IMG/VR virus record: IMGVR_UViG_2974793816_000001
Span: 12,760-76,759 of that record
Direction: 5' to 3' (one strand)
DNA from: a virus
Lineage: Duplodnaviria > Heunggongvirae > Uroviricota > Caudoviricetes > Thumleimavirales > Hafunaviridae
Length of the DNA stretch: 64,000 nt
Part shown: piece by piece, positions 14,349 to 45,337 of the stretch
Layout of the letters: each line of letters starts with the position of its first letter
How positions within the stretch are numbered: position 1 is the first letter of the stretch
Position numbers and translations under genes: made by a program
The notes under the pieces: generated by a model
Seen by the model: the letters and a program-made list of their open reading frames with translations, nothing else
Told to the model about the DNA's origin: nothing
Databases searched by the model: none

Positions 14349-15191
14349 CTATTCGTCTCCCCCGTTAGGGAGCATCCGCGACCCCGGCTTGTGTTGCCAG
14401 CGGTCGTTTCGGTACATCGAGATTTCAGATGAGAGTTCGTTCTTTGTTCGCGTTCGCTCCAACTGTTCGTCTTCAGTCATAGGTCGCGTTGTGGCGTCTG
14501 GAAGCATCGCGTCCCTCTTGAATGGAATCACCTGAATAATCGGAGTCCCCTTCGGTACGACTCCCTCGAAGTCACCACCAGTCCACATGAACGGCGCGTT
14601 GACGTTGTTGAAGTAGTTGTCAATATCAACCACTCCCGAGAATGGCGTGAACGGTTGTCCGGGTCGGTTCAGCGGGTTAGTGACGAGTACCGAGTAGCCG
14701 TCTGGAACCTTCATGCACCATTGGTTGTTGAACTTCATAATCGGCCACTCGTGGTTGGGGAACATCTCCCCTCCCACTTGCGAAAGGTTGTGATTCGAGA
14801 TTAGTGGCTCTTGGAACTCCCACTCGTAGTTCACGTATCCGTCCTTCGCCTCGAAGTAGATTTCTCCCGAGAGGGGGATGATGAACCCCATCGTCATTGC
14901 CTCCATGAACGGAGCGCAACGCTTGACTGTGGAGCGGCTAATTCCTTCTCTGGTATTCGTTGAGCCAAACTCGCCGTCGTTGGCGGTGTATTGGCCGAGC
15001 TTCTTGTACCAGTCCGGCAGAACCTTGTTCGCCGGGATGGGTTCGGGAATCGCGCCGTACAGTTCTTCGTCGGTCACGAACTCGATGAGCTGGTCTTCTT
15101 CCGGTTCTTCTTCTGCTGGCGAGCCGTCAAGTCGAACCTTGTTAGAGAGGTCACTAACGGCGTCGGTTACACTCGAAAAATCCATCTTCAC
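14349..15191 (-). CDS. hypothetical protein (280 aa)
   Basis: Acidic ORF. A TATA-like TCTTTAAGTCC sits about 28 nt upstream of the start, consistent with a leaderless transcript. Confidence 0.45.
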   Translation of the reverse strand: MKMDFSSVTDAVSDLSNKVRLDGSPAEEEPEEDQLIEFVTDEELYGAIPEPIPANKVLPDWYKKLGQYTANDGEFGSTNTREGISRSTVKRCAPFMEAMTMGFIIPLSGEIYFEAKDGYVNYEWEFQEPLISNHNLSQVGGEMFPNHEWPIMKFNNQWCMKVPDGYSVLVTNPLNRPGQPFTPFSGVVDIDNYFNNVNAPFMWTGGDFEGVVPKGTPIIQVIPFKRDAMLPDATTRPMTEDEQLERTRTKNELSSEISMYRNDRWQHKPGSRMLPNGGDE

Positions 15192-15240
15192 TCTAATAGA
15201 CGTGAGCCAAGGACTTAAAGATTCCTCTTTGAGTCTTTAA
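15189..15240 (+). promoter_or_regulatory. family-1 repeat element with palindromic TATA-like core (CTCACTCTAATAGACG...GGACTTAAAGA...TTGAGTCTTTA)
   Basis: About 55 bp, repeated at least 7 times in the window. TTAAAGA/TCTTTAA lies about 28-30 nt from start codons on both sides. Confidence 0.5.
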
Positions 15241-15251
15241 CACTCAACAAT

Positions 15252-15377
15252 ATGATACCTGAACTCGCAAACACGCCACCTCTCGTAGCGTGGCTACTCG
15301 GATTCTTCATGGCATTGGCACTCAAACGTGGCCGAATCGCGGCCATCCTCGACCGGCTACTCCCGACAGAAAACTAA
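15252..15377 (+). CDS. possible 41-aa membrane micro-protein (MIPELANTPPLVAWLLGFFMALALKRGRIAAILDRLLPTEN)
   Basis: Not in the ORF track. ATG is 30 nt downstream of the TATA-like box of the element at 15189-15240. Hydrophobic helix. Followed by an intrinsic terminator. Confidence 0.25.
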   Translation: MIPELANTPPLVAWLLGFFMALALKRGRIAAILDRLLPTEN

Positions 15378-15382
15378 CCGCA

Positions 15383-15438
15383 TAAGACTTAATTCGGTAT
15401 CTTTAAGTCCTTAGTAGCCGTCTAATAGAGTGAGGAGC
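15383..15438 (-). promoter_or_regulatory. family-1 repeat element (reverse orientation)
   Basis: Reverse complement reads CTCACTCTATTAGACGGCTACTAAGGACTTAAAGATACCG. Convergent with the copy at 15189. Confidence 0.4.
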
Positions 15439-15476
15439 TTACGACGAAGCGAACCTAACTGGTTCACCTCGAAATC

Positions 15477-15515
15477 CACCCCACACTACCCAACTCGGTA
15501 GTGTGGGGCCTTTTT
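15477..15515 (+). terminator. intrinsic terminator (12-bp perfect stem + T5)
   Basis: CCCCACACTACC-caactc-GGTAGTGTGGGG followed by CCTTTTTCC. Confidence 0.55.
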
Positions 15516-15550
15516 CCATCTAACTGATTCACTTAGTTGAGACTGAGATA

Positions 15551-15616
15551 GAACAAACACCTCGATGTGGTGAATCACTCTGAGTAGTTCACCTACTATA
15601 CTACTATACTATACAC
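15551..15616 (+). promoter_or_regulatory. family-2 leader element (GAACAAACACCTCGATGTGGTGAA box + CTACTATA direct repeats) upstream of the ribonucleotide reductase gene
   Basis: Box shared with elements at 24947 and 45412. Followed by three short AT-rich direct repeats that end at the ATG. Confidence 0.4.
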
Positions 15617-15619
15617 AAA

Positions 15620-18040
15620 ATGTCCGTAGTCACTACTGAAACCGAAACCGAAGAACAGACTGTTGAAACCCCCATCAAGACCGCCGACGATTCTCTCACC
15701 GTAGAAGAACGCCTTACAGACAACGCTCTCCACGGTATTCTCCCGGCCCGCTACTTCCGCAAAGACTCGGAGGGCAACATCATCGAGGATGCTGACGACC
15801 TGTTCCGACGAGTCGCTGAAAACGTCGCAGGGGCCGAGGTATCCGACGAGGATTACGAAACGTGGGCTGGCGAGTTTGAACACCAGATGAAGACGCTCCG
15901 GTTCATGCCGAACAGCCCGACCCTGATGAACGCCGGGACGGACATGAACCAGCTCTCTGCGTGCTTCGTGATTGAACCCCGCGACGACATGGAAGACATT
16001 TTTGAGACGGCTCAGCAGGCCGCTCTCATCTTCCAGAGCGGGGGCGGCGTCGGGTATGCCTTCTCCCACCTCCGACCCAAGGGAGCGTTCATCAATTCGA
16101 CTGGCGGCGAAGCGAGCGGCCCGGTGAGCTTCATGCGGGTCTTCGATGAGACGTGTAATCAGGTGAAGCAGGGCGGGAAGCGCCGGGGCGCTCAGATGGG
16201 TATTCTCCGCGCCGACCACCCCGACGTGGGGCGGTTCATCGTGGCGAAGCGGAACGAGGGCGACCTTGCGAACTTCAACATCTCGGTCGCTACGACGGAC
16301 AACTTCATCGAGGCAGTTGAGGCTCAGGATTCCTACACTCTCTACGACCCGGAGACGGACTACGAGGAGCCGTACACCGTCCGAGAGGCGTCGGCCCACT
16401 TCTACTCCCCCGAGTATCAGGACAACCCGCGTGACGCCTTTGACGACGGCGAGGGCGCTATCGTCGCGGAGAACCTGTGGCGAGACTACGCCGACGAGAT
16501 TGAGTGTGAGCTGTTCGGGGAGCGCGTGACGCTCCGCGAGAAGTGGGAGGGCCACGAGGGTCTTCGACTCGAAGTGGGTGAGCCGATGGAGCTTCCCGCC
16601 GCGTTCATTTGGGACGTGATGATTGACGGGGCGTGGCGCAACGGCGAGCCGGGCCTGTTCAACTTCGAGGAGTCGAACCGCCAGCACTCCTTCGACGTGG
16701 AGAAGTACCCCGAGTTCCGCATGAACGCGACTAACCCCTGCGCCGAGCAGATGCTCGTGGAGTACGAGGCGTGTAATCTCGGTCACATCAACCTCAGTCT
16801 GATGCTGAACGAGGACGCCCCGACCTACGACGAGTTCCTGAGCGACAAGCTGGATTCAATCGCTACGGGCGACCTTTCCACCCGCGAAGCCGTGGAGTGG
16901 TACTTCGAGGAGGTCACGAACTTTGAAGACCTGAATCGAACCATCGAGGCGGGGGTTCGGTTCCTCGATAACGTGGTCACGCAGTCGGACTTCCCCATCC
17001 CCGAGATTACCGAGCGCGTCAACGGGATGCGGAAAATCGGACTCGGGATTATGGGCTTCGCTCAGATGCTTTTCCAGATGGGGATTCCCTACGGGACGCA
17101 GGACTCCTACGAGATGGCGCGGTGCGTTATGCGGTACATCGACCGGAAGGGAACGTGGTCGTCGCACAATCTCGCCAAGGAGCGCGGCGTGTTCTCCTAC
17201 TGGGAGAAGTCGAAGTACGCCGACCCGACCGAGTACCCGGAGTGGTTCGCGGCCCGCACCGGGCTTGACCCGAACGACCACGCTGGCGGGTTCTTCATCC
17301 GCAACCACAACATCACGACTATCGCCCCGACTGGAACCACCTCGATGATTGGGAACACGACGGGCGGGTGCGAGCCTGCCTACAACGTGGCGAACTTCAA
17401 GAACGTCAGCGAGGACATTCAGGGCGACGACCTGCTCGTGGAGTTTGACGACTACTTCCTTCGGACGCTTGAGGCGAACGACCTCGATGTGGAGAGCATC
17501 AAGGAGGAAGCCGAGTCGCTGATGCGGAACAACGAGTTTGAGGGAGTCAACGACCTCTCCATCCCCGAGGAGATTGCTGAAATCTTCGTGACCACGCAGG
17601 ACTTGTCCTCTGAACAGCACGGGCTGATGCAGAGAGCGTTTCAGGAGTTTTGCGACTCGGGCATCAGCAAGACGGTGAACCTCCCTAACTCGGCCACGCA
17701 CGACGACGTGAGCGAAGCCTACCAGCTCGCCCTCGATGAGAACCGACGTGGCGCGGTTATCAAGGGCCTCACCGTGTACCGGGATGGCTCTCGGGACGTT
17801 CAGGTTCTCACGACCCGCGTGGACAACAATCTGGACGACGAGGGCGACCGCGACGACGACCTTCTTGAGCTGTACCTCAAGGGTGAGGTGAGCGAGAAGG
17901 CCGCTGTTCAGCTCGGTATCGTTGGAGAGGACGACGTGGGTTCGGATACGCTCACCTGCCCGGAGTGTGGTGACGGTGAGCTGGAGAAGACGGACGACTG
18001 TGCGGTGTGCCCGGAGTGCTGGTACAGTCCGTGTAAGTAG
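15620..18040 (+). CDS. nrdJ: ribonucleotide reductase, class II (adenosylcobalamin-dependent, NrdJ-like)
   Basis: 806 aa with the NPCAEQ active-site motif and a C-terminal CPECGDG...CAVCPECWYSPC zinc ribbon typical of class II enzymes. Confidence 0.8.
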   Translation: MSVVTTETETEEQTVETPIKTADDSLTVEERLTDNALHGILPARYFRKDSEGNIIEDADDLFRRVAENVAGAEVSDEDYETWAGEFEHQMKTLRFMPNSPTLMNAGTDMNQLSACFVIEPRDDMEDIFETAQQAALIFQSGGGVGYAFSHLRPKGAFINSTGGEASGPVSFMRVFDETCNQVKQGGKRRGAQMGILRADHPDVGRFIVAKRNEGDLANFNISVATTDNFIEAVEAQDSYTLYDPETDYEEPYTVREASAHFYSPEYQDNPRDAFDDGEGAIVAENLWRDYADEIECELFGERVTLREKWEGHEGLRLEVGEPMELPAAFIWDVMIDGAWRNGEPGLFNFEESNRQHSFDVEKYPEFRMNATNPCAEQMLVEYEACNLGHINLSLMLNEDAPTYDEFLSDKLDSIATGDLSTREAVEWYFEEVTNFEDLNRTIEAGVRFLDNVVTQSDFPIPEITERVNGMRKIGLGIMGFAQMLFQMGIPYGTQDSYEMARCVMRYIDRKGTWSSHNLAKERGVFSYWEKSKYADPTEYPEWFAARTGLDPNDHAGGFFIRNHNITTIAPTGTTSMIGNTTGGCEPAYNVANFKNVSEDIQGDDLLVEFDDYFLRTLEANDLDVESIKEEAESLMRNNEFEGVNDLSIPEEIAEIFVTTQDLSSEQHGLMQRAFQEFCDSGISKTVNLPNSATHDDVSEAYQLALDENRRGAVIKGLTVYRDGSRDVQVLTTRVDNNLDDEGDRDDDLLELYLKGEVSEKAAVQLGIVGEDDVGSDTLTCPECGDGELEKTDDCAVCPECWYSPCK

Positions 18041-18063
18041 ACTGAGTTAATCAGTTAGCAAGC

Positions 18064-18100
18064 CTCCCCATCGGGCCTTACGGCTCGGTGGGGATTTTTT
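18064..18100 (+). terminator. intrinsic terminator after the ribonucleotide reductase gene (hairpin + T7)
   Basis: CCTCCCCATCGGG...CTCGGTGGGGA followed by TTTTTTT. Confidence 0.5.
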
Positions 18101-18104
18101 TCGT

Positions 18105-21032
18105 TTAGTCCATCATCTCCTTGAGTTCTACCAGCTCGATGAGGAGGTCTACGTAGATTGTCTCAAGGATTTCTTCCATCCGTGTTTCCTCGAACCCGAG
18201 AACAGAGAGGATTGTCTCATCAAGCGTCTTCTTCGGCTCGAATCCATCCCCAAGTTCATCCTCTGCTTCGGGGAAGTGACGCTCCAATGCCGCCGTCTGT
18301 TCGTCGGAAAGGTTATCGGGGTTGACGTTACTCGCCATTTGCTTGACGAGACTCGGAGCCTCCACGTCGTGAACGTCCTCGAAGCAATCCATTAGTAGCT
18401 CCTTGTCCTCGTCGGAGAGCCGGTTCGGGTGGATTGTGTAGAACCGATTTTGCGTGTATTTCCGGTACTTCGTCCAGCCTCCACGACCGGGGACTCGGGT
18501 GAGAAGCATCTGAAGGAGTCCGAATGATGAATCAAACCAGAGTGAGAGAACCTTCGACTCGGCTTCGTTGAGGTCTGAGTGCATCCACATCCGGTGAGAC
18601 ACCCGTGGCTTGCTGGTGAAGTAGACGATGTGGGACGTACCGGGAGCTGTCAAGTCCACCGTCTCTGGAATTGAGGTGTGGGCGGCATTATCGACGATGT
18701 GGGACTCCCACCCATCAGGAATCCCATCTTCTTCTGACAGCGAGAGGAACCTATCGAGTTCATCAAACTCACGGACGACGGTGTGTTCTTCGAGGTCTGT
18801 AATATCGAGCTTCTGTCGGTATGGCTTCCGTAGGAAGTATGGCTCAACTGCATCCCGAGGAACAGTTACCGTCTCTCCTACGTGACGGTGTTTAACCTCC
18901 AACTTGTCCTCGTTCGCTGATTTTACCTGCCATACGTCGCTTTTCCGAAGGTTAGTGTCGGGCGCACCGATACATCCGCCCGTCCACGGGTGACTACTCC
19001 CACCGCGAGTGAGGCCAGCATCGAGGTGCTGTATCTGCGTGAGGTTATCCTCCTGTTCGAGAATATCACCCCATAGCTGGAACAGGGAGTGGTTCTGGAC
19101 TGCGAATGGAGAGAACAAATTGTGAGTGTCCATCTGCTCCCTCGGAACCCGCCAAACCGTAGCGGTGGATGACCCATCCTCGATGGTTTCGACCTCTCCG
19201 GCTTTCTCGTCTTTAAGTTGTTCAGAGACGTTCCGAATCAGGGAGCTATCTACATCTAATCCATCAAGGGAAACGTAGGTCGTGCTTGCATCCTCGGTGT
19301 TCCCCTTCCGGGCGATTATCATTACTTCTCGAAGGTCAGTATCCTCGGAGAAGTTGGGATTGTCTTCTCGTGCGAAAATATACTCAATATCGTAGTCGTT
19401 GAGAAGCATCTCCCGAACGCCGCTGTCGGTGGATTTGTTGAGGACGGTAGCGGGAATGACAGCCGCTATGCGTCCTCCTTCATTGAGGAATTTGTCTGCG
19501 AGATAGAGGAAGTATGAGCAGTAACTCATCTTCCCGTGGATGTGACCCTTGTTGTCTCGTCGGGAGAATCGGTCACGGAGTCGGTCTTTGTATCCGTCAG
19601 CAAATCCTGCGACAGACTCTTGCCGAGTGAAAGGTGGATTCATTATGACGGTATCCATCGTCTTCAGCTCCATCTCCTGACCAATCGCGGCGTCCATTGC
19701 CACGCTACCGGCCTCAATCGCATCCTCGCTCACGTCCGGTTTTTGTCCTTCTGCGAACTCGGAAAGACCTCGTTGTTCGTCTTTTTGTGGTAGAACAAAC
19801 GAGAGAGGGCTGATAGTGCTTCCCGGTGCGAGCTTAGTAGAGTCCTCGATGCCGATATTCACTTCGTCAGTTTCGTATATGGGCGCTTGGAGAGCAAGAT
19901 GGATACAACTCAGGTGAGCCGCGAATGGCATCACGTCAATTCCCGTAATGTCGTCTTCTACGAACTGTTGGTGCATCTTCTCAGTAAATTCGCTATCCAC
20001 CAACGACCGCTTTCGATTGTACGCCGCCGCGAGAAGACTTCCGCTCCCACACGCGGGGTCAAGGACTTTAGCATCAGACGAGTCGATACTGAGGTCAGCG
20101 AGAATCTGTCCCGGCTTGTTCATCGTGTAGTAAGCCGCGACCCGCTTCCTCGCCTCGATGGGGATTAGCTCGTGGAAGACCTTTCCGAGTACGTCGTGCG
20201 TGATTGACTCGGGACGAAGGGCGTAGATAGACTTGATAGCATCAATCAGGATGGTGATGCTGGTTTGTGGCAAGTCCTCCGCAATCCTGAATGAGAATAC
20301 TGGGGTGTAGTCAACTTCGAGTACGAGGTCGAAGTATTCGCTAAGGTCTTTTGGTGAGCCGAGTTTGTCGGGGTCTATCTCGGGGAACTCTTGAGCTGAT
20401 GATAGGACACGGTAGAACGTGATTTGGTTTACGAGAAGGAACCCTGCGGTCTTCTTTGCGGCTTCTCGTTCTTCTTTCCCCTCCGGGGACGCGCCGAGGA
20501 CGTTACGGAACAGGTTTTCTTTTGGTGCGGTTTCCAGTTCCTCATTCAGACGGTACGCCGTCTGTCGAAGGACGGAAACAACCTCGTCCGGGTCGGGTTC
20601 TGGTTTCCGCTCGTTCTTGATGTGCGAATCAAGCCATCGAGGGATTTCGTCCAACGAGAGGCTAACAATATCGGTAGGGGAGTCCCGGCGGAGGAAAGCG
20701 CAGGAGAATTTGTGGCCGCTGAGAACGGACTCTGCTGTATCTGTGAGCCGCGCTTGACCGCCATCCTGTTTCAGTTTTTCCGGGTAGCAGATTAGGAATG
20801 TACCTTCTACCCCGGTGAGCTGGCCGTAGTCTCTCGCCTCTCCGAATCCTTCCCATTTCTTGTTCTCCCATTTCGCTTCACCCACGAAGGTCATTCCGTT
20901 GACCTTGATTTGGAAGTCGGGCTGAGAGCGGGTTCCGGGTGTCGAAATGGAAACCTGCGTAGCGGCATTTACCCCGTTGTCTCGGAGGTAATCTGCCATC
21001 AAGTCGGTTATCCCATCTTCCGTAGCAGACAT
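18105..21032 (-). CDS. Type IIG/IIL restriction-modification enzyme (MmeI-like; PD-ExK nuclease fused to gamma-class N6-adenine methyltransferase and target-recognition domain)
   Basis: 975 aa. N-terminal PD...EAK motif (QPDFQIKVNGMTFVGEAKWE). SAM-binding motif LDPACGSGSLL and catalytic VIMNPPF. About 450 aa of C-terminal target-recognition domain. TATA AATTTATAG about 28 nt upstream of the ATG. Confidence 0.65.
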   Translation of the reverse strand: MSATEDGITDLMADYLRDNGVNAATQVSISTPGTRSQPDFQIKVNGMTFVGEAKWENKKWEGFGEARDYGQLTGVEGTFLICYPEKLKQDGGQARLTDTAESVLSGHKFSCAFLRRDSPTDIVSLSLDEIPRWLDSHIKNERKPEPDPDEVVSVLRQTAYRLNEELETAPKENLFRNVLGASPEGKEEREAAKKTAGFLLVNQITFYRVLSSAQEFPEIDPDKLGSPKDLSEYFDLVLEVDYTPVFSFRIAEDLPQTSITILIDAIKSIYALRPESITHDVLGKVFHELIPIEARKRVAAYYTMNKPGQILADLSIDSSDAKVLDPACGSGSLLAAAYNRKRSLVDSEFTEKMHQQFVEDDITGIDVMPFAAHLSCIHLALQAPIYETDEVNIGIEDSTKLAPGSTISPLSFVLPQKDEQRGLSEFAEGQKPDVSEDAIEAGSVAMDAAIGQEMELKTMDTVIMNPPFTRQESVAGFADGYKDRLRDRFSRRDNKGHIHGKMSYCSYFLYLADKFLNEGGRIAAVIPATVLNKSTDSGVREMLLNDYDIEYIFAREDNPNFSEDTDLREVMIIARKGNTEDASTTYVSLDGLDVDSSLIRNVSEQLKDEKAGEVETIEDGSSTATVWRVPREQMDTHNLFSPFAVQNHSLFQLWGDILEQEDNLTQIQHLDAGLTRGGSSHPWTGGCIGAPDTNLRKSDVWQVKSANEDKLEVKHRHVGETVTVPRDAVEPYFLRKPYRQKLDITDLEEHTVVREFDELDRFLSLSEEDGIPDGWESHIVDNAAHTSIPETVDLTAPGTSHIVYFTSKPRVSHRMWMHSDLNEAESKVLSLWFDSSFGLLQMLLTRVPGRGGWTKYRKYTQNRFYTIHPNRLSDEDKELLMDCFEDVHDVEAPSLVKQMASNVNPDNLSDEQTAALERHFPEAEDELGDGFEPKKTLDETILSVLGFEETRMEEILETIYVDLLIELVELKEMMD

Positions 21033-21530
21033 TGGATACTTCGTGATTTGGAGGTCGGGACTATAAATTATGTCACAGAGACATACCGGAGTGAGAAATC
21101 ACCTCGATGCGTCTGTTCACGAAAAGATTTCTTCGTGAGAAACGTCGCCGTTGTGTTGACGCTCTTTCTCCCACTCGATTTCTCCTTCGACTTTCCCGAA
21201 GATTTCCGAGGCGATGGTGCGGTCTTCGTAGTCGCGGTCTGGATTGTCCTTGATTTGCTCCAACTCGTGTTCCAAAAACGCGAGGTGTTTTGGGGACAAT
21301 TGCATATAAAGAACCACACACCGGGGGGTTATAAAACGGGGGGTAGTGATTTGGACTTCATTTCCCATCACTCGGTTGTGGAAACGGGGTGGTACACGCA
21401 CGGCATACGGCCCTATACCCTCCTGTTTTTTATAAGTAGGATTGGTAGTAGAGTGTAGAGAAGCACGCAGAACGGGATGTTCCCGGCAAAGGTAGCCGCT
21501 TTCAGGGCCGAAGGCCTCCTCGGTAAAGCG

Positions 21531-21577
21531 CGTCCTTGGTAAGGACGAGACCGGGGGTTCAAATCCCCCCTCAGGCT
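21531..21577 (+). other. 3' fragment of tRNA-Thr(GGT) (anticodon arm + T arm + acceptor 3' strand); putative attP core
   Basis: CGTCC-TTGGTAA-GGACG anticodon arm, GGGGG-TTCAAAT-CCCCC T arm, CTCAGGC acceptor strand. No complementary 5' acceptor strand or D arm upstream. Adjacent to the integrase. Confidence 0.5.
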
Positions 21578-21760
21578 TTCAGCCTTCGTGGGGCTTCTCA
21601 CCCCATTTTGCGTGCTTCTTGGACACGTAACAATGCGAACCAAGAAAGCACTCTACCCACAAACGGCCACCCCCGCGCCGTCGTGCGATTCCGTGAATTG
21701 TCAGGACACTATAACGCTGAACCCCGCGCGAGCGCGTATCCTCGGAGTGGGGGTCGGACG

Positions 21761-23425: not shown

Positions 23426-23466
23426 AACCTGATATTCTACTGGGGGGTGTGAAAAAGCCACGGCTA

Positions 23467-23506
23467 CAAAATAAAAAAAGACCCCCGACCACGGGGGGTC
23501 GGGGGT
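23467..23506 (-). terminator. intrinsic terminator downstream of RtcB (hairpin + T-run on the minus strand)
   Basis: Minus-strand reading CCACCCCCGACCCCCCGTGGTCGGGGGTC followed by TTTTTTTATTTTG. Confidence 0.6.
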
Positions 23507-23519
23507 GGCAAACACTACT

Positions 23520-24884: not shown

Positions 24885-24946
24885 TAGGTTCTGTTTAGAT
24901 AGAGTGTATAACTCTGAGTGTTCTACTACGGTACTGTCTTAGTTGA

Positions 24947-25128: not shown

Positions 25129-25131
25129 TGT

Positions 25132-35095: not shown

Positions 35096-35113
35096 TGGTG
35101 GTGAAGGGCGCGT

Positions 35114-35891: not shown

Positions 35892-35979
35892 TTGGTGTCC
35901 TGCTGTTTGCGTACTGCTAAAGAGTCGAAGCTCGGTACATAACTCTTAAGATAAGAGTCGGAACTACCTCGATGAGTCT

Positions 35980-37161: not shown

Positions 37162-38393
37162 GTAGGTACGTATTCGTTTTCGTAGATTCGGCAGGATTCG
37201 TCCGAGCGGTCGTTCATTCCGACGCAGAACTCGCCACCAGCGTCCCATACGTTCTGACAAACGAACGGGCCTTCGTAGCGGGAGATTAGGTCTTCAACCA
37301 GAGAGCGCGTGGTTCCCTCGCTGAATCCCTCGATAGGGCGGAAGAAGTTTACAATCACGTCGATTGGAACCTTCTTCTGGATTAGCTCCTTCATCACATT
37401 GATTTCCATAATGCGACTCTCGGAACCGTACCCGTAGGAGTCGTTGCGCTTGACAAACTCCATGATACAGGGCTTGTTCGCAACGAGAAGCGGAATGTCG
37501 CTTACCTTGATTCGGTCGTTCGATTCCTCCTCGTAGCGTTTCACCGCCTTCGGGTCTTTCACCGAACCACGGCGCTCGCTATGATATTCGCCACCGCTGG
37601 CGTTCCGTACTTCGAGGGCGACTTCCCGGCGTCCTGCCGCCGAGGGCGACCGCTCCGTGATAGGAACGGGCCGGGGGCCGCTGGTCAATTCGAGGTAGTC
37701 GTCTGGTGACAAGTTCACCAGCTCCTCGATGCTCACCGGAACACACCAGCTCGTTTCCTCCCGGTGTTCAGCTCCGGGGTGGGGCGTGTTCGGATGCCGG
37801 ACGAGTCGTGCGAGGTCGGAGCTGTCAACGTCAACCCACGGGTCGATGTTGATTCCGCCTGCGATTTCGTCCAGTTGAGCTATCATCTGGTCGCCGTACT
37901 TTTCGAGTCCACGTTTGAACTGAGTGTACGACCCGTTGGCTACATCCACCGGCTCGAAGTCGAAGAACAGGTGGATTCCCTTGTGACCGGATAGGGAAGC
38001 CCGCCAATGCTCTTGTTTTCCTCCAGCGATGATTGCCTCAGCGACGAGCTGAACGCGAATCAGAAGGTCACTCATCGAGCGTTTCCACGCATCGAGGGTT
38101 CGGTTCCGTTCGCGGTACTCGGAGTCGGCGGGAACGTCGAAGTCGATGAAGATAGTGTCTATCTTCGGGATGTTGTCCCCGTCGTCGGTGTGGCCCCGAG
38201 GGAAGGAGTAGGTGGATACGAACCCGTCCTTCCCGGCGTTGCCTGCTTCCAGAAGATTGCTTACCAGTTCTACTCGATTGTTCACCGGCTCTTGTATCCT
38301 AAACCGGGTACTCGCCCTCCGTGGAGCGTCCGGCCCCACGTCGGGACACCAGACTTTGCTCGCTTGCCATAGAAGCTTCTCGTGATTTCCCAT
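37158..38393 (-). CDS. archaeo-eukaryotic primase (PriS/PrimPol-like)
   Basis: Catalytic FIDFDVPAD (DxD) and SGHKGIHLFFDF (sGxxGxH) motifs. Confidence 0.65.
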   Translation of the reverse strand: MGNHEKLLWQASKVWCPDVGPDAPRRASTRFRIQEPVNNRVELVSNLLEAGNAGKDGFVSTYSFPRGHTDDGDNIPKIDTIFIDFDVPADSEYRERNRTLDAWKRSMSDLLIRVQLVAEAIIAGGKQEHWRASLSGHKGIHLFFDFEPVDVANGSYTQFKRGLEKYGDQMIAQLDEIAGGINIDPWVDVDSSDLARLVRHPNTPHPGAEHREETSWCVPVSIEELVNLSPDDYLELTSGPRPVPITERSPSAAGRREVALEVRNASGGEYHSERRGSVKDPKAVKRYEEESNDRIKVSDIPLLVANKPCIMEFVKRNDSYGYGSESRIMEINVMKELIQKKVPIDVIVNFFRPIEGFSEGTTRSLVEDLISRYEGPFVCQNVWDAGGEFCVGMNDRSDESCRIYENEYVPT

Positions 38394-38518
38394 TTGTGTG
38401 AGTGGTCATTCTTCGCACCTCTCGGTGAAGCTCGTACAACCCGCGCTCTGACAGGACGGGCAGTATTCAGAGACGCCACCCGTGCTGGTTTCACAGCACC
38501 GGCACGTCCAGCGTCCGT

Positions 38519-40003
38519 TCATCCGAGCGTTCCGCCAGCGAAGGCTTGCTGAGCGTCGGACTCATCCCCGGCGTCGTCGGTGTCGTCGGAGTCCCCACCG
38601 TAGAGGTCTTGGGAGAACACGTCTTCCTCGGCCTCGGTCGCTTCTTCGACCTTATCTTCGAGGATGTTCTGTTTGGTGATGTTCAGCTTCTCCCCGGTGA
38701 AGGGGTGCGTCACGAACAGGCCGTCGCCTTCGCAGAACCGCTCGATGTATTCCTCCGCCACGTCTTCCGGCAGGGCCTTCCGAGCGGTTTCCTTCGTGTC
38801 TTCGACCATCTCTGCCCAATCGAGAGTCACGTCACGCTTCGCCTGCGCCGCGAACTCGGACGCCTTCCACATCACGGGGTTCTCGCTCTGGTCTTTCCGC
38901 ACGTAGCCCTTCGTGAGCATATTGTTCAGCGCGGAGTGAACGTCGCGGTTCGTGATGTTGAAGCCCCGGTCGCGCATCTCCATCTGAATCTCCGCCTTCG
39001 AGTAGCCGTCGTTCGTGTCTCGAAGCATCGACAGCATCTCGAAGTCGATTTCCCGAAGGTTCAGAGCCGAGAGAATCATCTGCTCACCGAAGATTCGCAT
39101 GGCGTACCACACGTCGGCTGGCGTGATTAGGAGAGTCGCCGTCTCCGTCCGGTCGGGGAGAGCCGGAGTCATTCGGTCTTTGTAGTGGAACAGCGCCACC
39201 GACCGGCAGAAGTCCAGAAGGCGCGGGAAGTCCTGCCGGGCCTCCGTGAAGTGCTGAGGGAGCGGATTCTGGTTGTTCAGCGCAACCGACACCGGGTTCA
39301 GCGTTCCCCCGTTCGGGCCGTCGTCGGAAGCGAACATCTTGACCGGGATGCCGGAAACGTACCGGCGAATCTCGTCGCGCTCCTCCTCGGTGAAGTTATA
39401 CTCGACGAGTCCCGCTTCCTGCCGGGCCTGCCGCTCGTTGACCTCCTTGGTCAGCTCCTCGCTGGCGTCAATGGAGACGACGAGAGCGCGGTTCCGAAGT
39501 TCGGGGTAGTCGTTGAGGTCTACCTGCTCGTTGTCCGAAGCCACGAACAGCACGAAAGCGTCCGGGGGCTTCAGCTCGAACGACTCGGTTTGACCACTCG
39601 TACCGAGAGCGCGGGAGTGGGTAGCCGACTTGCCCTCTCCGTGGCGCTTCATTATCTCCTCCAAGTGCTGTTTGTCTTGGAGAGTCGCAATGTCCGGGTA
39701 ACGGTGGACACGAGCCGAGTTCATCTGGTCTTCTTTCATGTAGAGGTCGGTCTTACTGGTCGAATCGGGAACCTTGAACACGAAGTCCCCCATCGTACAG
39801 TAGTCAGCCGCGTCCACCACCATGTCCTTGCCACCTCGTGAGAGGCCGGTCATAGCGACGAACCCTCCGTTGAACCACGAGAGGAATACGGTCTGAAGGG
39901 TGTCTTCTTCCCCCATCAGCCCGAAATCCTCTTTCATCAGCGTCAGGTCGTACAGGTTCGGAATGTAGGTATCTTCCATCTGGTTGAGAACGGGTATGTT
40001 CAT
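38519..40003 (-). CDS. putative replication-associated protein (degenerate P-loop + C-terminal winged helix)
   Basis: MTGLSRGGKD P-loop-like segment, C-terminal wHTH, acidic tail. Positioned after the primase. Confidence 0.3.
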   Translation of the reverse strand: MNIPVLNQMEDTYIPNLYDLTLMKEDFGLMGEEDTLQTVFLSWFNGGFVAMTGLSRGGKDMVVDAADYCTMGDFVFKVPDSTSKTDLYMKEDQMNSARVHRYPDIATLQDKQHLEEIMKRHGEGKSATHSRALGTSGQTESFELKPPDAFVLFVASDNEQVDLNDYPELRNRALVVSIDASEELTKEVNERQARQEAGLVEYNFTEEERDEIRRYVSGIPVKMFASDDGPNGGTLNPVSVALNNQNPLPQHFTEARQDFPRLLDFCRSVALFHYKDRMTPALPDRTETATLLITPADVWYAMRIFGEQMILSALNLREIDFEMLSMLRDTNDGYSKAEIQMEMRDRGFNITNRDVHSALNNMLTKGYVRKDQSENPVMWKASEFAAQAKRDVTLDWAEMVEDTKETARKALPEDVAEEYIERFCEGDGLFVTHPFTGEKLNITKQNILEDKVEEATEAEEDVFSQDLYGGDSDDTDDAGDESDAQQAFAGGTLG

Positions 40004-40080
40004 TGCGAGCGAAATTTCAGGAACCTATTTCATGGCCTATGCTCGGGACTATACTACTTCATCGAGCGGGAGAACAGAGC

Positions 40081-40332
40081 CTACTCGTCCGACTTGCGAA
40101 CGTGCTTCTCCCACCGCTCCATGATGCTCCTCTCGGTGGACTCCCACGCGAGGTCTTCCAGCGCCTCGATGACTTCCTCCGGGTCGTCAACGGGGTCGCC
40201 GTTCTCGTCGTGGGGAATCTCGGCGGTGAGGAACGTGTGTGCCGTCGCTGGCTCGTACTGACCGAGCTGTTTCTTCTTGTCCGAACCGACCTGTACCTCT
40301 GTAACGTATTGCTTGGCGTCTTCCTTGTCCAT
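40081..40332 (-). CDS. hypothetical small acidic protein
   Basis: 83-aa ORF. Confidence 0.3.
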   Translation of the reverse strand: MDKEDAKQYVTEVQVGSDKKKQLGQYEPATAHTFLTAEIPHDENGDPVDDPEEVIEALEDLAWESTERSIMERWEKHVRKSDE

Positions 40333-40382
40333 TTCTATGAGTTAACAGCGTGCTTCCGAGTCTTTACACCGAGGGAGAGAAC

Positions 40383-41339
40383 CTACATCCGGTTCTCAAT
40401 CTCGGCAATCACCGCATCGAGGTCGTACTCGGCGTCACCGACTTCACCAGCGACGAGCTGTTCGACGTTCTCCGGGTTCGTCTCACCCGTGTTCGCCATG
40501 AAGTCGATAATCTGGTCGGCGGCCTGCGGAACACCCTCAGGAAGCTCCTCGTCGGAGTCGTCGCCGCCACCGAGCGAGCCACCCGAGCTACCGGAGGACT
40601 CGTCGGAGTCGTCGCCGTCGCCGCCCGAGTTGGCGATGGTGATACCAGCGAACGTCTCAGCATCAAGAACCTTCGCGTCGGTGTATTCCACGTAGTCGTC
40701 TTCGCTCTCCGCGTCGTCCGGCAGGAAGCCGTCCTTGTAGTAGGAGAGGATGATACGGCGGCCTTCGAGGTCGTCGCGGAGTTCGAGGGCGTCGTCGTTC
40801 AGCCAGTTGTAGTTGTCGTCCTTGTCGTCCACCACGTCGTGACCGGCAGGCGTGATGACCTTGGCGAAGGTGCGGTTCTTCGTCCCGTTCGAGAGCCACA
40901 GCGTACAGTTGCCGAGGCTCACCGGGTCGTCGTCCTCACGCACGGCCTCCTGAAGCTTGTACGTGAAGTTGTTGCTACCGAACTGCTCGTTGTGACGGGA
41001 GGGAACTTCGTCAACCCCCACATCCTCGGTCGGAGCGCCGTTGTCGTCGGTGGCGAACCACGTATCCCAACCGAACACCTTGATGGTGTCGTCGGACTCG
41101 TCGCCCGGCGACCGCTCCATCACGATGCCGTCGATTACCTCCACGTCGTCGGCGTCCACGATGAGGGACTGACCGTAGGACGACCCGGTGTATTCACCGA
41201 GACGCCCAATCTTGAACGAGATGAAGGCGTAGTTGTTCATCTTCAGGGAGATACGCTCCTCGAAGTCGCCGCTCGCGCCGCTGTTGTTCGTGTTGCCGCC
41301 GCTGTTGTAGTCGGTGTCGAAAAGGCTCATTTGTTGAAG
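40383..41339 (-). CDS. hypothetical acidic protein
   Basis: The ORF-track start at 41561 would run through tRNA-Tyr. Internal Met MSLFDTDYN near 41339 is the plausible start. Confidence 0.35.
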   Translation of the reverse strand, partial: LQQMSLFDTDYNSGGNTNNSGASGDFEERISLKMNNYAFISFKIGRLGEYTGSSYGQSLIVDADDVEVIDGIVMERSPGDESDDTIKVFGWDTWFATDDNGAPTEDVGVDEVPSRHNEQFGSNNFTYKLQEAVREDDDPVSLGNCTLWLSNGTKNRTFAKVITPAGHDVVDDKDDNYNWLNDDALELRDDLEGRRIILSYYKDGFLPDDAESEDDYVEYTDAKVLDAETFAGITIANSGGDGDDSDESSGSSGGSLGGGDDSDEELPEGVPQAADQIIDFMANTGETNPENVEQLVAGEVGDAEYDLDAVIAEIENRM

Positions 41340-41411
41340 TAGGTTTCTCTGGTTCTGTTTGTCACTCGTTTCGGAGCCAACTACGGCATAGGTGTTTTCG
41401 CCGTAGAAAAG

Positions 41412-41480
41412 TCTGGACGGACGGAATCGAACCGCCCTTGGGAGGTTTACAGCCTCCGCGTTCGCCTTGAACACGTCCAG
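41412..41480 (-). tRNA. tRNA-Tyr (anticodon GTA)
   Basis: CTGGACG/CGTCCAG acceptor stem with a C1-G72 pair, which I recall as typical of archaeal tRNA-Tyr. GGAGG-CTGTAAA-CCTCC anticodon arm. GGCGG-TTCGATT-CCGTC T arm. The D arm is short. Confidence 0.65.
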
Positions 41481-41562
41481 AAAAGGGCCTATGATTGGGG
41501 GTGTCCACACCGCGTGAACGGGAGTGGCTACAAAGGTACGGCCAGCACCTCGCGTAGCCAAG

Positions 41563-41635
41563 CGCCGAGGGGAGGACTCGAACCTCCGACCACCGTGTTA
41601 ACAGCACGGCGCTCTACCAACTGAGCTACCTCGGC
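41563..41635 (-). tRNA. tRNA-Asn (anticodon GTT)
   Basis: Full cloverleaf: GCCGAGG/CCTCGGC acceptor, GCTC/GAGC D stem, CCGTG-CTGTTAA-CACGG anticodon arm, GGAGG-TTCGAGT-CCTCC T arm. Confidence 0.85.
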
Positions 41636-41663
41636 AAGAGAAAGGGGGGATTGAGGTGCTTGT

Positions 41664-41717
41664 CCTCACTCTATTAGATGTGGGACTAAGACTTAAAGAT
41701 ACCTATATGAGTCTTAG
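41664..41717 (+). promoter_or_regulatory. family-1 repeat element
   Basis: CCTCACTCTATTAGATGTGGGACTAAGACTTAAAGATACCTATATGAGTCTTAGAG. Confidence 0.4.
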
Positions 41718-41799
41718 AGTTCATCGGGAGGGATGCCCCGCTCGATGAAGTTAGTAGCAAGTGGAGAACCACAACCGGGAGAGATAGAAGTAGCAGACA

Positions 41800-42012
41800 T
41801 TACTTGTCGAAGCGGTTGACCCACGTAGAGAGATTCTTGATAGAGAGGCCATCCGCCCGAACGTCGTCAGCGAGAGAAGTGAGAGAATCCAGCAGAGTAG
41901 AATCGTTCCACGAGACGGGGTATTCGAGAGAGATGATGTCCACCTCGTCGCCGTTGCCGAAGGGTTCGAGAGTCGCTTCGAGGTCGCCGGAGGTCTGAGT
42001 GTAGGCAGTCAT
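41800..42012 (-). CDS. hypothetical small protein
   Basis: 70-aa acidic ORF. Its ATG overlaps the stop of an upstream 43-aa micro-ORF at 42010-42141. Confidence 0.3.
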   Translation of the reverse strand: MTAYTQTSGDLEATLEPFGNGDEVDIISLEYPVSWNDSTLLDSLTSLADDVRADGLSIKNLSTWVNRFDK

Positions 42013-42140
42013 GCTGGAGTGTTGATGGGGTTCACGACGTGGTTCGGCTCCGCAGTAGGAGCGAGCGGGACTTCCGGGCCGATTGGTTCGTTGAAGGAGA
42101 CAGCGCCGACGCCACCCGAGGGGGTATCGTCGTCGTCCAT

Positions 42141-42551
42141 CTACTCCTCCGCGAGCTGGTCGAAGTTCGGGACGACCGTGCCGTTCACTCGGTTGCCGGG
42201 AACGCTCATCCCCGAAAGCTCGAACACGTCGGCCGCCTTCTCGATACCGAACGCATCGAGCAGGTCGAAGAACTCGGCACTCGCGTCCTCGATACCATCA
42301 GGGAGGTCGAACTCCAAGTCAGCGGGGTTCGGGCCGTTCTCCGTGTACGTCGGGATGACCACGTAGAGGTCTTCGGTCAGCTCACCCCGGTCGATGAGTC
42401 TCGGCTCACCAAGCTGAATCTGAACCTCGAACCCGGAGTCCGTGCGCTCCGTGATTGCGTTGAAGACCGCCTCGGCCCCACCGAGGTCGAGGTAGTCACG
42501 TTCGTCGTCGTTACTTCGCCGGAACAGTAGGTTTCGGATGAATCCAAACAT
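42141..42551 (-). CDS. hypothetical protein
   Basis: The ORF-track start at 42737 overlaps the tRNA-like element. Internal Met MFGFIRN near 42551 is the plausible start. Confidence 0.35.
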   Translation of the reverse strand: MFGFIRNLLFRRSNDDERDYLDLGGAEAVFNAITERTDSGFEVQIQLGEPRLIDRGELTEDLYVVIPTYTENGPNPADLEFDLPDGIEDASAEFFDLLDAFGIEKAADVFELSGMSVPGNRVNGTVVPNFDQLAEE

Positions 42552-42633
42552 TGTTTCTCTCTGGTTTCCAGCGGATAACCGCCGCTGGCACGGCTTAGGT
42601 AGCGTAGTACCGAATCCCCTATGACGGAGGGGA

Positions 42634-42705
42634 AGCAACCGGCGGGAATCGAACCCGCAGAGCGTGGCTTTCGCTTCGCCCCCATTGCCAGTAGGTGTCG
42701 GTTGC
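42634..42705 (-). ncRNA. tRNA-like element with non-canonical anticodon region (possible pseudo-tRNA)
   Basis: Perfect 7-bp acceptor stem GCAACCG/CGGTTGC, T arm GCGGG-TTCGATT-CCCGC and D stem CCTA/TGGG. The anticodon arm is replaced by an extended stem capped with a GAAA tetraloop, so no 7-nt anticodon loop exists. Confidence 0.4.
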
Positions 42706-42781
42706 GAGTCGCGGATTGCCGCACCCCCGCCCATCAAGGGGCAGGGTCATACGGCCCCCACCGGAGCGACTATCCGGCTCA

Positions 42782-43005: not shown

Positions 43006-43007
43006 TC

Positions 43008-43880: not shown

Positions 43881-43924
43881 TTCGTAGATTTCTCTCTGGT
43901 CTGTTTGAAAGCCGATACACCGCA

Positions 43925-43999
43925 CGGAGACGATGGGATTTGAACCCACGCGCTTTCGGTTAGAAGCCGAACGCTCTGTCCGAGCTGAGCTACGTCCCC
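43925..43999 (-). tRNA. tRNA-Arg (anticodon TCT)
   Basis: GGGGACG/CGTCTCC acceptor (one G-U pair), GCTC/GAGC D stem, TTCGG-CTTCTAA-CCGAA anticodon arm, GTGGG-TTCAAAT-CCCAT T arm. Confidence 0.85.
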
Positions 44000-44087
44000 A
44001 AAATGCCACCGTGAGCGGTGGCTGGACACCAATGACAACTATGACAGGAGTTAGCCAAGCAAACGAGTTGGGAGGCCACCGCGACCT

Positions 44088-44140
44088 CCTCACTCTAATA
44101 GACGCGAGCCAAGGACTTAAAGATACCGCTTTGAGTCTTA
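44088..44140 (+). promoter_or_regulatory. family-1 repeat element
   Basis: CCTCACTCTAATAGACGCGAGCCAAGGACTTAAAGATACCGCTTTGAGTCTTAGAATG. Lies between tRNA-Arg and the + gene at 44196. Confidence 0.45.
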
Positions 44141-44195
44141 GAATGTTGGCGAGACTATGGCAAAGACTTAATAGCGTGACTTCATCTTTACACTC

Positions 44196-44747
44196 ATGGC
44201 GAAGACGAAGCACAAGAACAAGGAGAAAGTCGTCAAATGCCCCGTTGATGGGTGCGACCACGAAGGTCTGTCCCGAGGGATGCACCTTCACGTCCGACAG
44301 TCGAGCGGCAACGGACACGGCCCGAACGGAGACGTTCCAGAACACTTAGACTTTAGTGATTTGGAAGTAGTTGGCACACAAGAAGTTGAGATGGATTACC
44401 CCGAAACTCGAAAGGGAGAAGACGTTGCTCGCCTCTGTCCTTTCTGCCGCCGACCGTTCAGCGGCTATCAGGGCGTAATGATTCATCTTGGTCAGATTGC
44501 CGGGAAGGAGAATCACCCGGAGGATGCTACCGACCTCGTTGACAAGGGTGACTGTCCGGTTGCTCACGTCGATGAAGACCGCAACGTGGTTGAAGTGGTC
44601 GATGAGGGCGACCCCGACCTGATGCCGTCCACGGAAGAACGGAGAGAAGGCTCCGTGCCGCGAGCTGATGTGATTGCCTACATCGAGTGGGCTGAATCCA
44701 ACGACCACCTCACGGCGGCGAACAAGGCACGAGAGATACTACTCTAA
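44196..44747 (+). CDS. zinc-finger protein
   Basis: CPVDGCDHEG and CPFCRRPF motifs. 183 aa. Confidence 0.4.
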   Translation: MAKTKHKNKEKVVKCPVDGCDHEGLSRGMHLHVRQSSGNGHGPNGDVPEHLDFSDLEVVGTQEVEMDYPETRKGEDVARLCPFCRRPFSGYQGVMIHLGQIAGKENHPEDATDLVDKGDCPVAHVDEDRNVVEVVDEGDPDLMPSTEERREGSVPRADVIAYIEWAESNDHLTAANKAREILL

Positions 44748-45229
44748 AGCTCGATTTCGTCTCGCCACTTCTCCGAGAAGAACTCGGGTTCGTACTTCCA
44801 CTTATTTATCGACGGGTCGTTACGGTACAGTTCGTTCGTCAGCTCCACCATCTCGTAGAAGCCCTGCTTCGTCAGGTACTCCTTCTCCCGATACGCCGGG
44901 AGGATTTCTCCCATGAAGATGGAAGCCAACTCGCTCTGCTGAATCAGGTACGGAGCCAGCGGCCCGTAGAACCGCTCGATTGATTCAGCATCCGAGATTT
45001 TGAACAGCATCGTCGTTCCGCTATCTTTGATTTCCCACCGGACTCCCTGCTCGGAACAGTATTCCTCGAACAGCCCGAACACGGCAGTTTGTGGGTCGCT
45101 ACGACTAATTTGAACGTATGGTTCTATCTTGTATCCTGTCTTGAAATCGCTATCCTCGCTGATTTCCACTCGGAACCGACCGAGTGAATCGACTACTCCG
45201 GCTATGTACGCTACGTCGTCCTCTTTCAT
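44744..45229 (-). CDS. LAGLIDADG-like homing endonuclease candidate
   Basis: 161 aa with an N-terminal AYIAGVVDSLGRF segment resembling a single LAGLIDADG motif. Flanked by family-1 elements. Confidence 0.3.
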   Translation of the reverse strand: MKEDDVAYIAGVVDSLGRFRVEISEDSDFKTGYKIEPYVQISRSDPQTAVFGLFEEYCSEQGVRWEIKDSGTTMLFKISDAESIERFYGPLAPYLIQQSELASIFMGEILPAYREKEYLTKQGFYEMVELTNELYRNDPSINKWKYEPEFFSEKWRDEIEL

Positions 45230-45280
45230 ACCCGGCCAGTACGGGCCGGGTGGGTGTTAAGTCATTCATTGTTCACGAAT

Positions 45281-45337
45281 CTAAAGACTTAGAATCGGTA
45301 TCTTTAAGTCCTTAGTTCCCGTCTATTAGAGTGAGGA
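45281..45337 (-). promoter_or_regulatory. family-1 repeat element (reverse orientation)
   Basis: Reverse complement reads CTCCTCACTCTAATAGACGGGAACTAAGGACTTAAAGATACCGATTCTAAGTCTTTAG. Lies upstream of the minus gene at 45229. Confidence 0.45.

Follow-up and report, generated by a model that had tools for sequence, protein, structure and literature searches.

Seven copies of a ~57-bp intergenic element lie in the 64,000-nucleotide stretch of viral DNA analysed here (the window), which comprises record positions 12760–76759, that is, the final 64 kb of the 76,759-bp linear genome, of Halorubrum tailed virus 10 (HRTV-10). We are confident that these copies are the class I intergenic repeats (IRs) IR1c, IR2, IR3, IR4, IR4.5, IR5c and IR6 of the genus Haloferacalesvirus: promoters that fire through the end marked by a conserved motif termed gamma. 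The family is already described, as the “class I intergenic repeat” of HF2-like haloarchaeal viruses. An apparently unusual repeat is therefore a described and experimentally tested element, the direction of which can now be corrected. The original prediction, made by a model from the sequence alone, recognised the promoter family correctly; the direction that it assigned, and three structural inferences that depended on that direction, were wrong.

Window positions 14000–30000 are a 100% match to record positions 26759–42759 of HRTV-10 (MZ334496.1), a member of the Hafunaviridae, genus Haloferacalesvirus. Plus-strand tail genes occupy the first 14.3 kb of the window (1–14.3 kb); the region from 14.3 to 62 kb, in which most genes are on the minus strand, carries replication genes, nucleotide-metabolism genes and many small early ones. 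The phage collection holds 40 other related records, HF1 and HF2 among them, from viruses of Halorubrum, Haloarcula and Haloferax. The references for the class I intergenic repeats of HF1, HF2 and other Haloferacalesvirus members are Tang et al. 2002 and the 2021 HF2 study. The HF2 GenBank record annotates IR1c, IR2, IR3, IR4, IR5c and IR6 as ‘AT-rich intergenic repeats that contain promoter motifs’; the HRTV-10 record carries no IR annotation, and the text of the 2021 HF2 study (PMC8707807) does not name HRTV-10. In HF2 the class I repeats measure 56–58 bp and contain three conserved motifs, alpha, beta and gamma (Russ, Pfeiffer & Dyall-Smith, Viruses 2021, PMC8707807). The TATA box is part of beta, which includes TCTTTAAGTC, and the start site is part of gamma, which includes CGTCTNNTAGAG (PMC8707807).

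The copies stand far above chance. The original prediction had listed seven, and seven exist, each within a few bases of where it was placed. Allowing up to three mismatches, the 16-mer CTCACTCTAATAGACG occurs at six sites (15187(+), 15434(−), 27865(+), 41665(+), 44089(+) and 45335(−)), as against a mean of 0.56 matches in shuffled sequence, with none of 100 shuffles reaching six. The core GACTTAAAGA-N8-TNAGTCTT (up to two mismatches) gives ten matches where 0.00 are expected; six are exact, including that in the copy at 25100. This pattern misses the copy at 45281–45337 because of a 1-nt insertion in its core arm. Exact TTTAAGTC occurs eight times in the window, every time within one of the seven copies, the eighth occurrence being the alpha arm of the IR4.5 copy on the opposite strand. 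The beta motif (CTTTAAGT / TCTTTAAGTC) is likewise confined to the class I repeats within the window, which begins after the genome's first 12.8 kb.

Alignment of all copies confirms the blocks that they were said to share, and the comparison with HF2 makes the class assignment secure, since it rests jointly on gap-free alignment, on the same neighbouring genes and on the matching anatomy of IR4.5. The six full copies align to HF2 IR1c–IR6 without a gap, with 31 invariant columns, and show the same order and spacing of the three blocks over 56–58 bp, as do 47 instances across viruses. The IR3 copy has CATCT in place of CGTCT, as do several other viruses at that site. The seventh copy had been recorded as partial, at 25100; it is a full-length variant in which alpha and beta (with the TATA box) are kept and a 9-bp inverted repeat replaces the CTCACTCTAATAGACG arm, i.e. 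gamma, so that it reads ...TCTTTAAGTCATATAGTACCGTATCGGTACTATACG. The same replacement is described for HF2 IR4.5 (PMC8707807), and the HF2 primers IR4J span 37273–37330 (PMC8707807, supplementary primer table).

All seven copies are found between 15.2 and 45.3 kb, outside the tail genes, with the neighbours and orientation of their HF2 counterparts: the flanking genes common to both genomes are the ERCC4 operon, tRNA-Arg/prohibitin, tRNA-Asn/Tyr, polB|thyX, RtcB, Rnr and the HrrHF2_475 homologue. In every one of the seven, the gene or tRNA toward which gamma points is co-oriented with the repeat. Coordinates, predicted starts and related modules are given in Table 1.

Table 1. Class I repeats of HRTV-10, modules of the divergent neighbours and degenerate relatives in the window.
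Feature	Coordinates	Strand	Core identity to HF2	Context or sequence	Predicted start and target
IR6 orthologue	15185–15241	−	54/57 to IR6	Between the micro-ORF and gp35/HrrHF2_475 homologue	G 15193(−), inferred from HF2 primer extension; 8-nt leader to gp35 ATG 15185
IR5c orthologue	15383–15438	+	47/57	Syntenic with HF2 IR5c upstream of Rnr	15428(+); would drive class II ribonucleotide reductase gp37 (ATG 15620) through a 192-nt structured leader
IR4.5 orthologue (variant)	25071–25128	−	Region 96% identical to HF2 37260–37530		~25080(−); would drive RtcB (ATG 24884), ~195 nt away
IR4 orthologue	27864–27918	−	47/57	Syntenic with HF2 IR4 at PolB 3′ end; overlaps polB stop codon 27915–27917	27871(−); would drive gp50 (ATG 27825, 46 nt), thymidylate synthase (thyX), dCTP deaminase (dcd) and downstream genes
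IR3 orthologue	41664–41717	−	54/57 to IR3	tRNAs downstream	41671(−); would drive tRNA-Asn (41635–41563, 36 nt away), tRNA-Tyr and a long replication-gene block
IR2 orthologue	44088–44140	−	51/57 to IR2	Same downstream tRNA-Arg and prohibitin gene	44095(−); would drive tRNA-Arg (43999–43925, 96 nt away) and SPFH/prohibitin gene gp77
IR1c orthologue	45281–45337	+	58/58 to IR1c	Flanked by LAGLIDADG endonuclease and, on the opposite side, the ERCC4 operon	45329(+); would drive gp80 (ATG 45520, 191 nt) and ERCC4 nuclease gp81
gp78 module	44161–44173	+		Alpha-type TATA cAAAGACTTAATA, outside IR2	33 nt before gp78 ATG 44196
gp79 module	45256–45267	−		Alpha-like gaATGACTTAAC, outside IR1c	27–34 nt before gp79 ATG 45229
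gp20 module (relative)	2526–2553	+		Alpha-type TAAAGACTCAAC...	T1+31 is the A of the tail-tube gp20 ATG (2557)
gp95 relative	50430–50468	−		TAAAGACTTATAGATACCACTCCGAGTCTTAGAGG; resembles the alpha/beta dyad without gamma	Upstream of gp95
gp122 relative (HF2 IRB fragment orthologue)	60317–60356	−		Alpha-type TATA and gamma-like initiator, no beta: GTAAAGACTTAATACCGCAACGTTGTCTTTGAGAGTGAAGA
HF2 IRA fragment orthologue (relative)	61117–61144	−		Alpha and beta-like (TCTTTAAC) dyad with class I spacing, no gamma

How these elements work is known from HF2. All of its class I repeats drive the bgaH reporter strongly in their native orientation, and start sites map inside the element (PMC8707807), which bears out the original reading of the repeats as promoters built around a TATA box. 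By primer extension the start is the same G in gamma for every copy except IR4.5; the TATA box is an AT motif beginning at −26, with the transcription factor B recognition element (BRE) just upstream (PMC8707807). In scanning mutagenesis of HF2 IR4, activity depended on the TATA box and on the gamma/initiator region but withstood mutation of alpha, of the BRE and of those beta bases that lie outside the TATA box (PMC8707807). The HF2 promoters are active in Haloferax volcanii without any viral gene, and members of the genus keep the repeats at the same positions and in the same orientation (PMC8707807).

Given identities of 82–100% per copy to the HF2 counterparts, and the same positions, the HRTV-10 copies may by analogy be expected to behave as their orthologues do: as strong forward promoters with the same start. 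Counted 26 nt downstream from the first T of TTTAAG, the +1 would fall on the TAG guanine of CGTCTAWTAGAG (CGTCTAWTAG), and transcription would leave through the CTCACTCTAATAGACG arm, that is, through gamma. Each copy would then hold, within ~57 bp, a complete archaeal promoter for the host RNA polymerase and its factors, the TATA-binding protein (TBP) and transcription factor B (TFB). The alpha block TAAAGACTYA would lie at about −46 to −37; in the beta block TATCTTTAAGTC, a short BRE-like stretch would come before TTTAAG, the TATA box, whose first base is at −26; and the gamma block, CGTCTAWTAG(+1)AGTGAGGA, would supply the initiator and the first nine transcribed bases. From the G of TAG such transcripts would exit via the gamma end to drive early-to-middle genes. 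Alpha and the non-TATA part of beta, conserved yet dispensable, might form the binding site of a factor that times the promoter and that could be a virus-encoded protein or one particular TBP/TFB paralogue of the host.

Placing the start in gamma, as in HF2, reverses the original orientations: copies that had been recorded as (+) would fire on the minus strand, and vice versa. The two copies at 15189–15438, thought to be convergent, become a divergent pair standing back to back and firing outward, toward gp35 and the ribonucleotide reductase gene. Nor is an antisense RNA into polB to be expected from the copy at 27864, since it sits at the polB stop codon and points away from the gene; it would fire, on the same strand, into gp50/thyX/dcd. 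The conserved arm, which had been attributed to a dedicated DNA-binding regulator, contains the initiator and start site, and should be regarded first of all as part of the core promoter because its mutation abolished activity in Haloferax volcanii in the absence of viral protein.

Several considerations count against this account of the HRTV-10 repeats. Start sites and directionality are carried over from HF2 by analogy, and the +1 G is deduced from wording in the HF2 paper (‘AT-motif beginning at -26’), so that its position may be off by ~2 nt. Reverse activity in HF2 was measured on isolated 56–58-bp fragments in a heterologous host, where a start at the edge of the element, e.g., one directed toward gp36, could have gone undetected. 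The IR4 and IR5c copies are slightly closer in sequence to HF2 IR1c than to their syntenic partners; their orthology therefore rests on position. The step in which a regulator binds is conjecture from the sequence.

In IMG/VR the pattern TCTTTAAGTC-N16-TAGAGTGA (beta-N16-gamma) is found in 25 viral stretches with 41 instances; every stretch examined belongs to an HF1/HF2-like virus (HF2, HRTV-5, HRTV-8, Serpecor1, HSTV-4, HJTV-2) or to a related metagenome contig. In 596 Gb of bacterial and archaeal sequence, with each of 185,579 species represented by a single genome, the pattern was absent from all haloarchaea; the 8 matches returned were scattered, single and in unrelated bacteria, about the number expected by chance. 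A generic, host-wide sequence, the finding that was to have counted against the original prediction, is thereby rejected. Across 47 aligned instances, positions outside the bases fixed by the search pattern carry 1.4–2.0 bits at alpha AAGA..A, CGTCTA and GGA. The high-information positions are AAGA(C)(T).A.AA at −45 to −36, GG.A at −32 to −29, CGTCTA at −9 to −4 and GGA at +7 to +9.

Two metagenome contigs extend this range. Both L011 (1861–1894(−)) and L014 (11664–11697(+)) have beta and gamma intact, at polB/thyX and ribonucleotide reductase sites, with alpha diverged. Their DNA identity to known haloferacalesviruses is about 66–68% over a third to half of the query. Because they retain beta and gamma, the promoter core reaches relatives more distant than the isolates of the 2021 paper.

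Since copies occur in both orientations, possess internal inverted symmetry and lie at the boundaries of gene modules, in viruses of a group noted for large-scale recombination, one might see in them the remnants of a mobile or recombinogenic element (akin to miniature inverted-repeat transposable elements, MITEs, or to recombination sites at module boundaries). We regard this as exceedingly improbable. Viruses of different hosts and continents carry each copy at one and the same place and in one orientation, no haloarchaeal genome matches the beta-N16-gamma pattern, and HF2 provides direct evidence of promoter function (PMC8707807). A MITE-like element in particular is largely refuted: the sites occupied do not vary from virus to virus, host genomes contain no copies, and the symmetry is internal (alpha/beta) rather than terminal.

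A role at the level of RNA, in which the first nine transcribed bases, GAGUGAGGA, would give all class I transcripts a shared 5′ tag for their translation, stability or processing, is also very unlikely. In its favour, positions +1 to +9 hardly vary among the 47 instances, and the sequence is purine-rich and loosely Shine-Dalgarno-like. Part of this invariance, however, is fixed by the search pattern itself. Moreover, two of the seven copies drive tRNAs, the leaders of which are removed, and the distance from start site to start codon varies from 8 to about 195 nt. The loss of promoter activity in the HF2 gamma mutant (PMC8707807) indicates an initiator acting at the level of DNA. A scan at Rfam gathering thresholds returned nothing at the repeats, only tRNAs and two hammerhead ribozymes elsewhere, and a known RNA family at the repeats was rejected for want of a match there.

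The original prediction went further than promoter function and proposed that each element is a bidirectional promoter, with a single palindromic TATA box from which leaderless transcripts depart both ways, including the antisense RNA into polB. There are grounds for the idea. The alpha and beta arms are near-palindromic, and the first copy fits the dyad pattern on both strands; the candidate promoter of gp95 (Table 1) resembles the reverse strand of the class I dyad; and in HF2, IR1c and IR3 show low reverse activity, while IR3 may head a long reverse transcript, R52 (PMC8707807). Yet reverse activity in HF2 is ‘low (IR1c, IR3) or negligible activity’ (PMC8707807), and it is negligible even for IR4, whose alpha arm is a perfect TTTAAGTC on the other strand. 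That mutation of gamma abolishes activity in HF2 means that a TATA box alone does not suffice. The copy at 27864 fires away from polB. Finally, a start codon lies close to one copy only. The spacing of 28–30 nt that had been proposed between the core and start codons on both sides roughly describes the first copy; elsewhere the predicted start is about 36–195 nt from the next gene or tRNA. Even at the first copy the minus-strand gene does not begin at 15191, as had been supposed: an in-frame GTG is found there, and the annotated start is the ATG at 15185.

The genes that diverge from a repeat provide a further argument. Two of the three, gp78 and gp79, carry a TATA-like module of their own (AAGACTTA/ATGACTTA), 27–34 nt before the ATG and outside the repeats. 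The gp78 module has a conserved counterpart in HF2 (L002 4338–4345); that of gp79 would be the divergent neighbour's own promoter, judging from its sequence and placement. The third gene, gp36, is a conserved micro-ORF (a small open reading frame) at 15252–15377(+), encoding 41 amino acids (MIPELANTPPLVAWLLGFFMALALKRGRIAAILDRLLPTEN). It is situated between the two back-to-back repeats, neither of which points into it, and directly upstream of it there is only IR6, reversed. The search for drivers of the divergent neighbours found no TATA-type module belonging to gp36. The gene is present in seven viruses and specifies a conserved hydrophobic peptide, with 7, 4 and 13 changes relative to HF2 at codon positions 1, 2 and 3. 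Given this conservation and the bias toward the third codon position, gp36 is probably a real small membrane protein. Its expression may depend on read-through of the long late transcript reported for HF2 (PMC8707807), or on a weak reverse start in IR6, and it is at this gene alone that the bidirectional idea keeps some footing. On balance, general bidirectionality is unlikely, and the class I repeats are best read as promoters that fire one way, through gamma.

A more serious alternative concerns the purpose for which the sequence is kept. The alpha and beta arms make up an inverted repeat of 10 bp, AAGACTYAAA-N8-TTTAAGTCYT, with the BRE/TATA region at its centre. The words ‘palindrom’, ‘dyad’ and ‘operator’ are all absent from the text of the HF2 paper (PMC8707807), and the alpha/beta symmetry is not mentioned there. 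It is possible, if doubtful, that the repeats are mainly operator sites, maintained for binding by a dedicated viral protein, with promoter activity secondary. Alpha and the non-TATA part of beta are conserved in spite of being dispensable for basal activity in HF2 (PMC8707807), the 10-bp dyad is spaced as for a dimer, and the virus encodes winged-helix, helix-turn-helix and many zinc-finger proteins; candidates among these are the winged-helix gp41, the helix-turn-helix gp90 and small zinc-finger proteins of the early arm. The HF2 authors themselves favour, as a proposal, virus-encoded sequence-specific regulators (PMC8707807). Against this, the class I repeats of HF2 are strong in the absence of viral protein, which makes promoter function primary. 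Furthermore, the alpha octamer also occurs at TATA distance, 29–43 nt from start codons, at several other promoters, and so fits a BRE/TATA-type module equally well.

The octamer AAGACTYA occurs 18 times in the window, where 4.0 are expected. Ten occurrences are outside the repeats, eight of them intergenic and all eight of these aimed at the next gene; as intergenic DNA makes up 8.8% of the window, the binomial probability of this placement is ~1.4e-7. HF2 has conserved counterparts of the extra sites at the same positions, and two of the eight (upstream of gp95 and gp122) also have a gamma-like initiator at a fixed distance. The alpha/beta dyad symmetry, together with alpha-type TATA modules at about eight other promoters, constitutes a small addition to the published work. 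The modules were at least partly anticipated, since the HF2 authors noted one such case, an alpha-like box at T-4384 (PMC8707807), and list primers for fragments IRA, IRB, IRCc, IRDc and IRPc at or near extra alpha sites (PMC8707807, supplementary primer table).

In addition to the seven copies, four more degenerate relatives occur in the window (Table 1). At the gp122 relative HF2 reads GTCTCTTAGAGTGAGGA, and its primers IRB span 3666–3706; by BLAST the region is present in all 41 related records, and an exact 17-mer scan of IMG/VR for the IRB-like site returned only HF2 and one unrelated contig. The gp95 relative is conserved in six viruses amid variable flanks. For the IRA orthologue the HF2 primers span 2880–2937 (PMC8707807, supplementary primer table). 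The gp20 module is a candidate leaderless late promoter, as its sequence and position suggest. A spacing of T1+31 fits the gamma-like sites at gp95 and gp122 and puts predicted starts at, or a few nt upstream of, the ATGs of gp20, gp78 and gp79; at the mapped HF2 T-4384, 40 nt from T1, it fails. We therefore put it forward as a tentative rule for alpha-type modules.

These observations raise the possibility, which we advance with considerable reserve, that the class I repeat is a composite: two BRE/TATA-type modules of the form TAAAGACTYA, head to head, to which a gamma initiator is joined, the resulting dyad acting as an operator through which the promoters are switched on or off as a block. 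The TAAAGACTYA module would stand alone at the roughly eight other conserved promoters, ~31 nt upstream of the predicted start, and beta would be the mirror image of alpha. A dimeric viral protein, or a specific pair of host TBP/TFB paralogues, might bind the dyad operator, and the switch might act at the early-to-middle transition or in the lysogenic state. The composite reading fails for the spacing mapped at T-4384. What binds the alpha and beta arms, and how temporal control is imposed, is a modest question, already posed by the HF2 authors.

Several other features lie close to the repeats. Downstream of the IR5c copy, the 198 nt from the predicted start into gp37 (15428–15625, +) fold unusually well, at −62.9 kcal/mol (z = −6.1). 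This leader contains a GC-rich hairpin of 12 bp at 15479–15517(+), followed by CCUUUUUCC, which resembles a terminator or attenuator; no Rfam family matches the leader. An 18-kb transcript of HF2 that covers PolB and RtcB begins at IR3 (PMC8707807). Below the HRTV-10 IR3 copy, ARAGORN places tRNA-Tyr at 41411–41480(−), inside the annotated coding sequence of gp72 (40383–41510). The HF2 record has tRNA-Tyr at the equivalent place and a later start of the coding sequence, and the scan at Rfam gathering thresholds did not list the HRTV-10 tRNA-Tyr; the annotated start of gp72 in HRTV-10 is probably too far upstream. Between the IR1c copy and gp80 the motif TAGTTATACA occurs three times at 45430–45475(+), 11–13 nt apart from start to start. 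By position, this triplet is probably equivalent to the ‘complex bidirectional promoter region’ of HF2 (nt 17022–17068), which has 12-bp repeat boxes (PMC8707807).

Two paralogous structured elements, at 61040–61118(−) and 59580–59656(−), are located just downstream of alpha-type motifs; the first, after the dyad of the IRA orthologue, is tRNA-like. In both, an acceptor-like stem of 5 bp encloses AGTGGCGRC, and a hairpin resembles the T-arm of a tRNA (loop TTCGACT). The 3′ part consists of a GGTAGC-N4-GCTACC hairpin followed by GTGACACC-N-ATG. A consensus fold of the two paralogues in two viruses comprises 21 pairs, seven with compensatory double changes, and the match to the tRNA-like mascRNA family is weak and sub-threshold (25 bits, E=0.026). 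Their role may be that of tRNA-like signals for processing or regulation within the early transcript. Between small early genes are two type II hammerhead ribozymes (RF02276), at 54969–55036(−) and 50828–50893(−), with scores of 54 and 42.3 bits, above the gathering score. The HF2 record annotates one hammerhead, HrrHF2_135, upstream of the Rad3 helicase; that of HRTV-10 annotates none.

With these analyses, annotation of the seven HRTV-10 transcription units that class I repeats head becomes possible. Early and middle expression in a widespread genus of haloarchaeal myoviruses is controlled mainly at these repeats, which are also compact, strong promoters that function in Haloferax volcanii.

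Comparison with known systems begins with HF2, where the class I repeats have the same length (56–58 bp), blocks, spacing, copy number (seven), positions, orientations and downstream genes as in HRTV-10. The genome is drawn the opposite way and a few spacer bases have changed; nothing essential differs. Class II intergenic repeats (IR11c, IR12c) are likewise repeated, conserved, AT-rich promoters of the same genomes, but they are 29 bp long and unrelated in sequence (TATATAAACCCCTTTACCATTAATAG), are placed in the late morphogenesis arm, and drive the reporter strongly in both directions (PMC8707807). The bidirectional idea fits class II and not the class I family. None of the seven copies shares class II sequence; the sole CCCTTTAC in the window, at 8570–8577, belongs to a separate element. 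This is a class II repeat, the orthologue of HF2 IR11c, at 8563–8592(+) (ATATATAAACCCTTTACCATTAATAGTAGT), with one C fewer than in HF2 and 24 nt upstream of the baseplate wedge gene gp28 (ATG 8616).

With generic haloarchaeal promoters, as characterised in Haloferax volcanii, the class I repeats share a TATA box near −26/−27, a BRE-like stretch, initiation at a purine and the use of host machinery. They differ in that bases −46 to +9 are conserved, with hardly any variation among copies or among viruses, and in that the beta-to-gamma pattern is absent from haloarchaeal genomes. A likeness to the repeated, class-specific promoters of phages was drawn by the HF2 authors (PMC8707807): in T7, and in the middle promoters of the lactococcal 936 group, one promoter sequence is likewise reused before the genes of a temporal class in a linear, terminally repeated genome. 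In contrast to such phage promoters, the class I repeats involve no virus-encoded RNA polymerase; host factors suffice, even in an uninfected heterologous host (PMC8707807).

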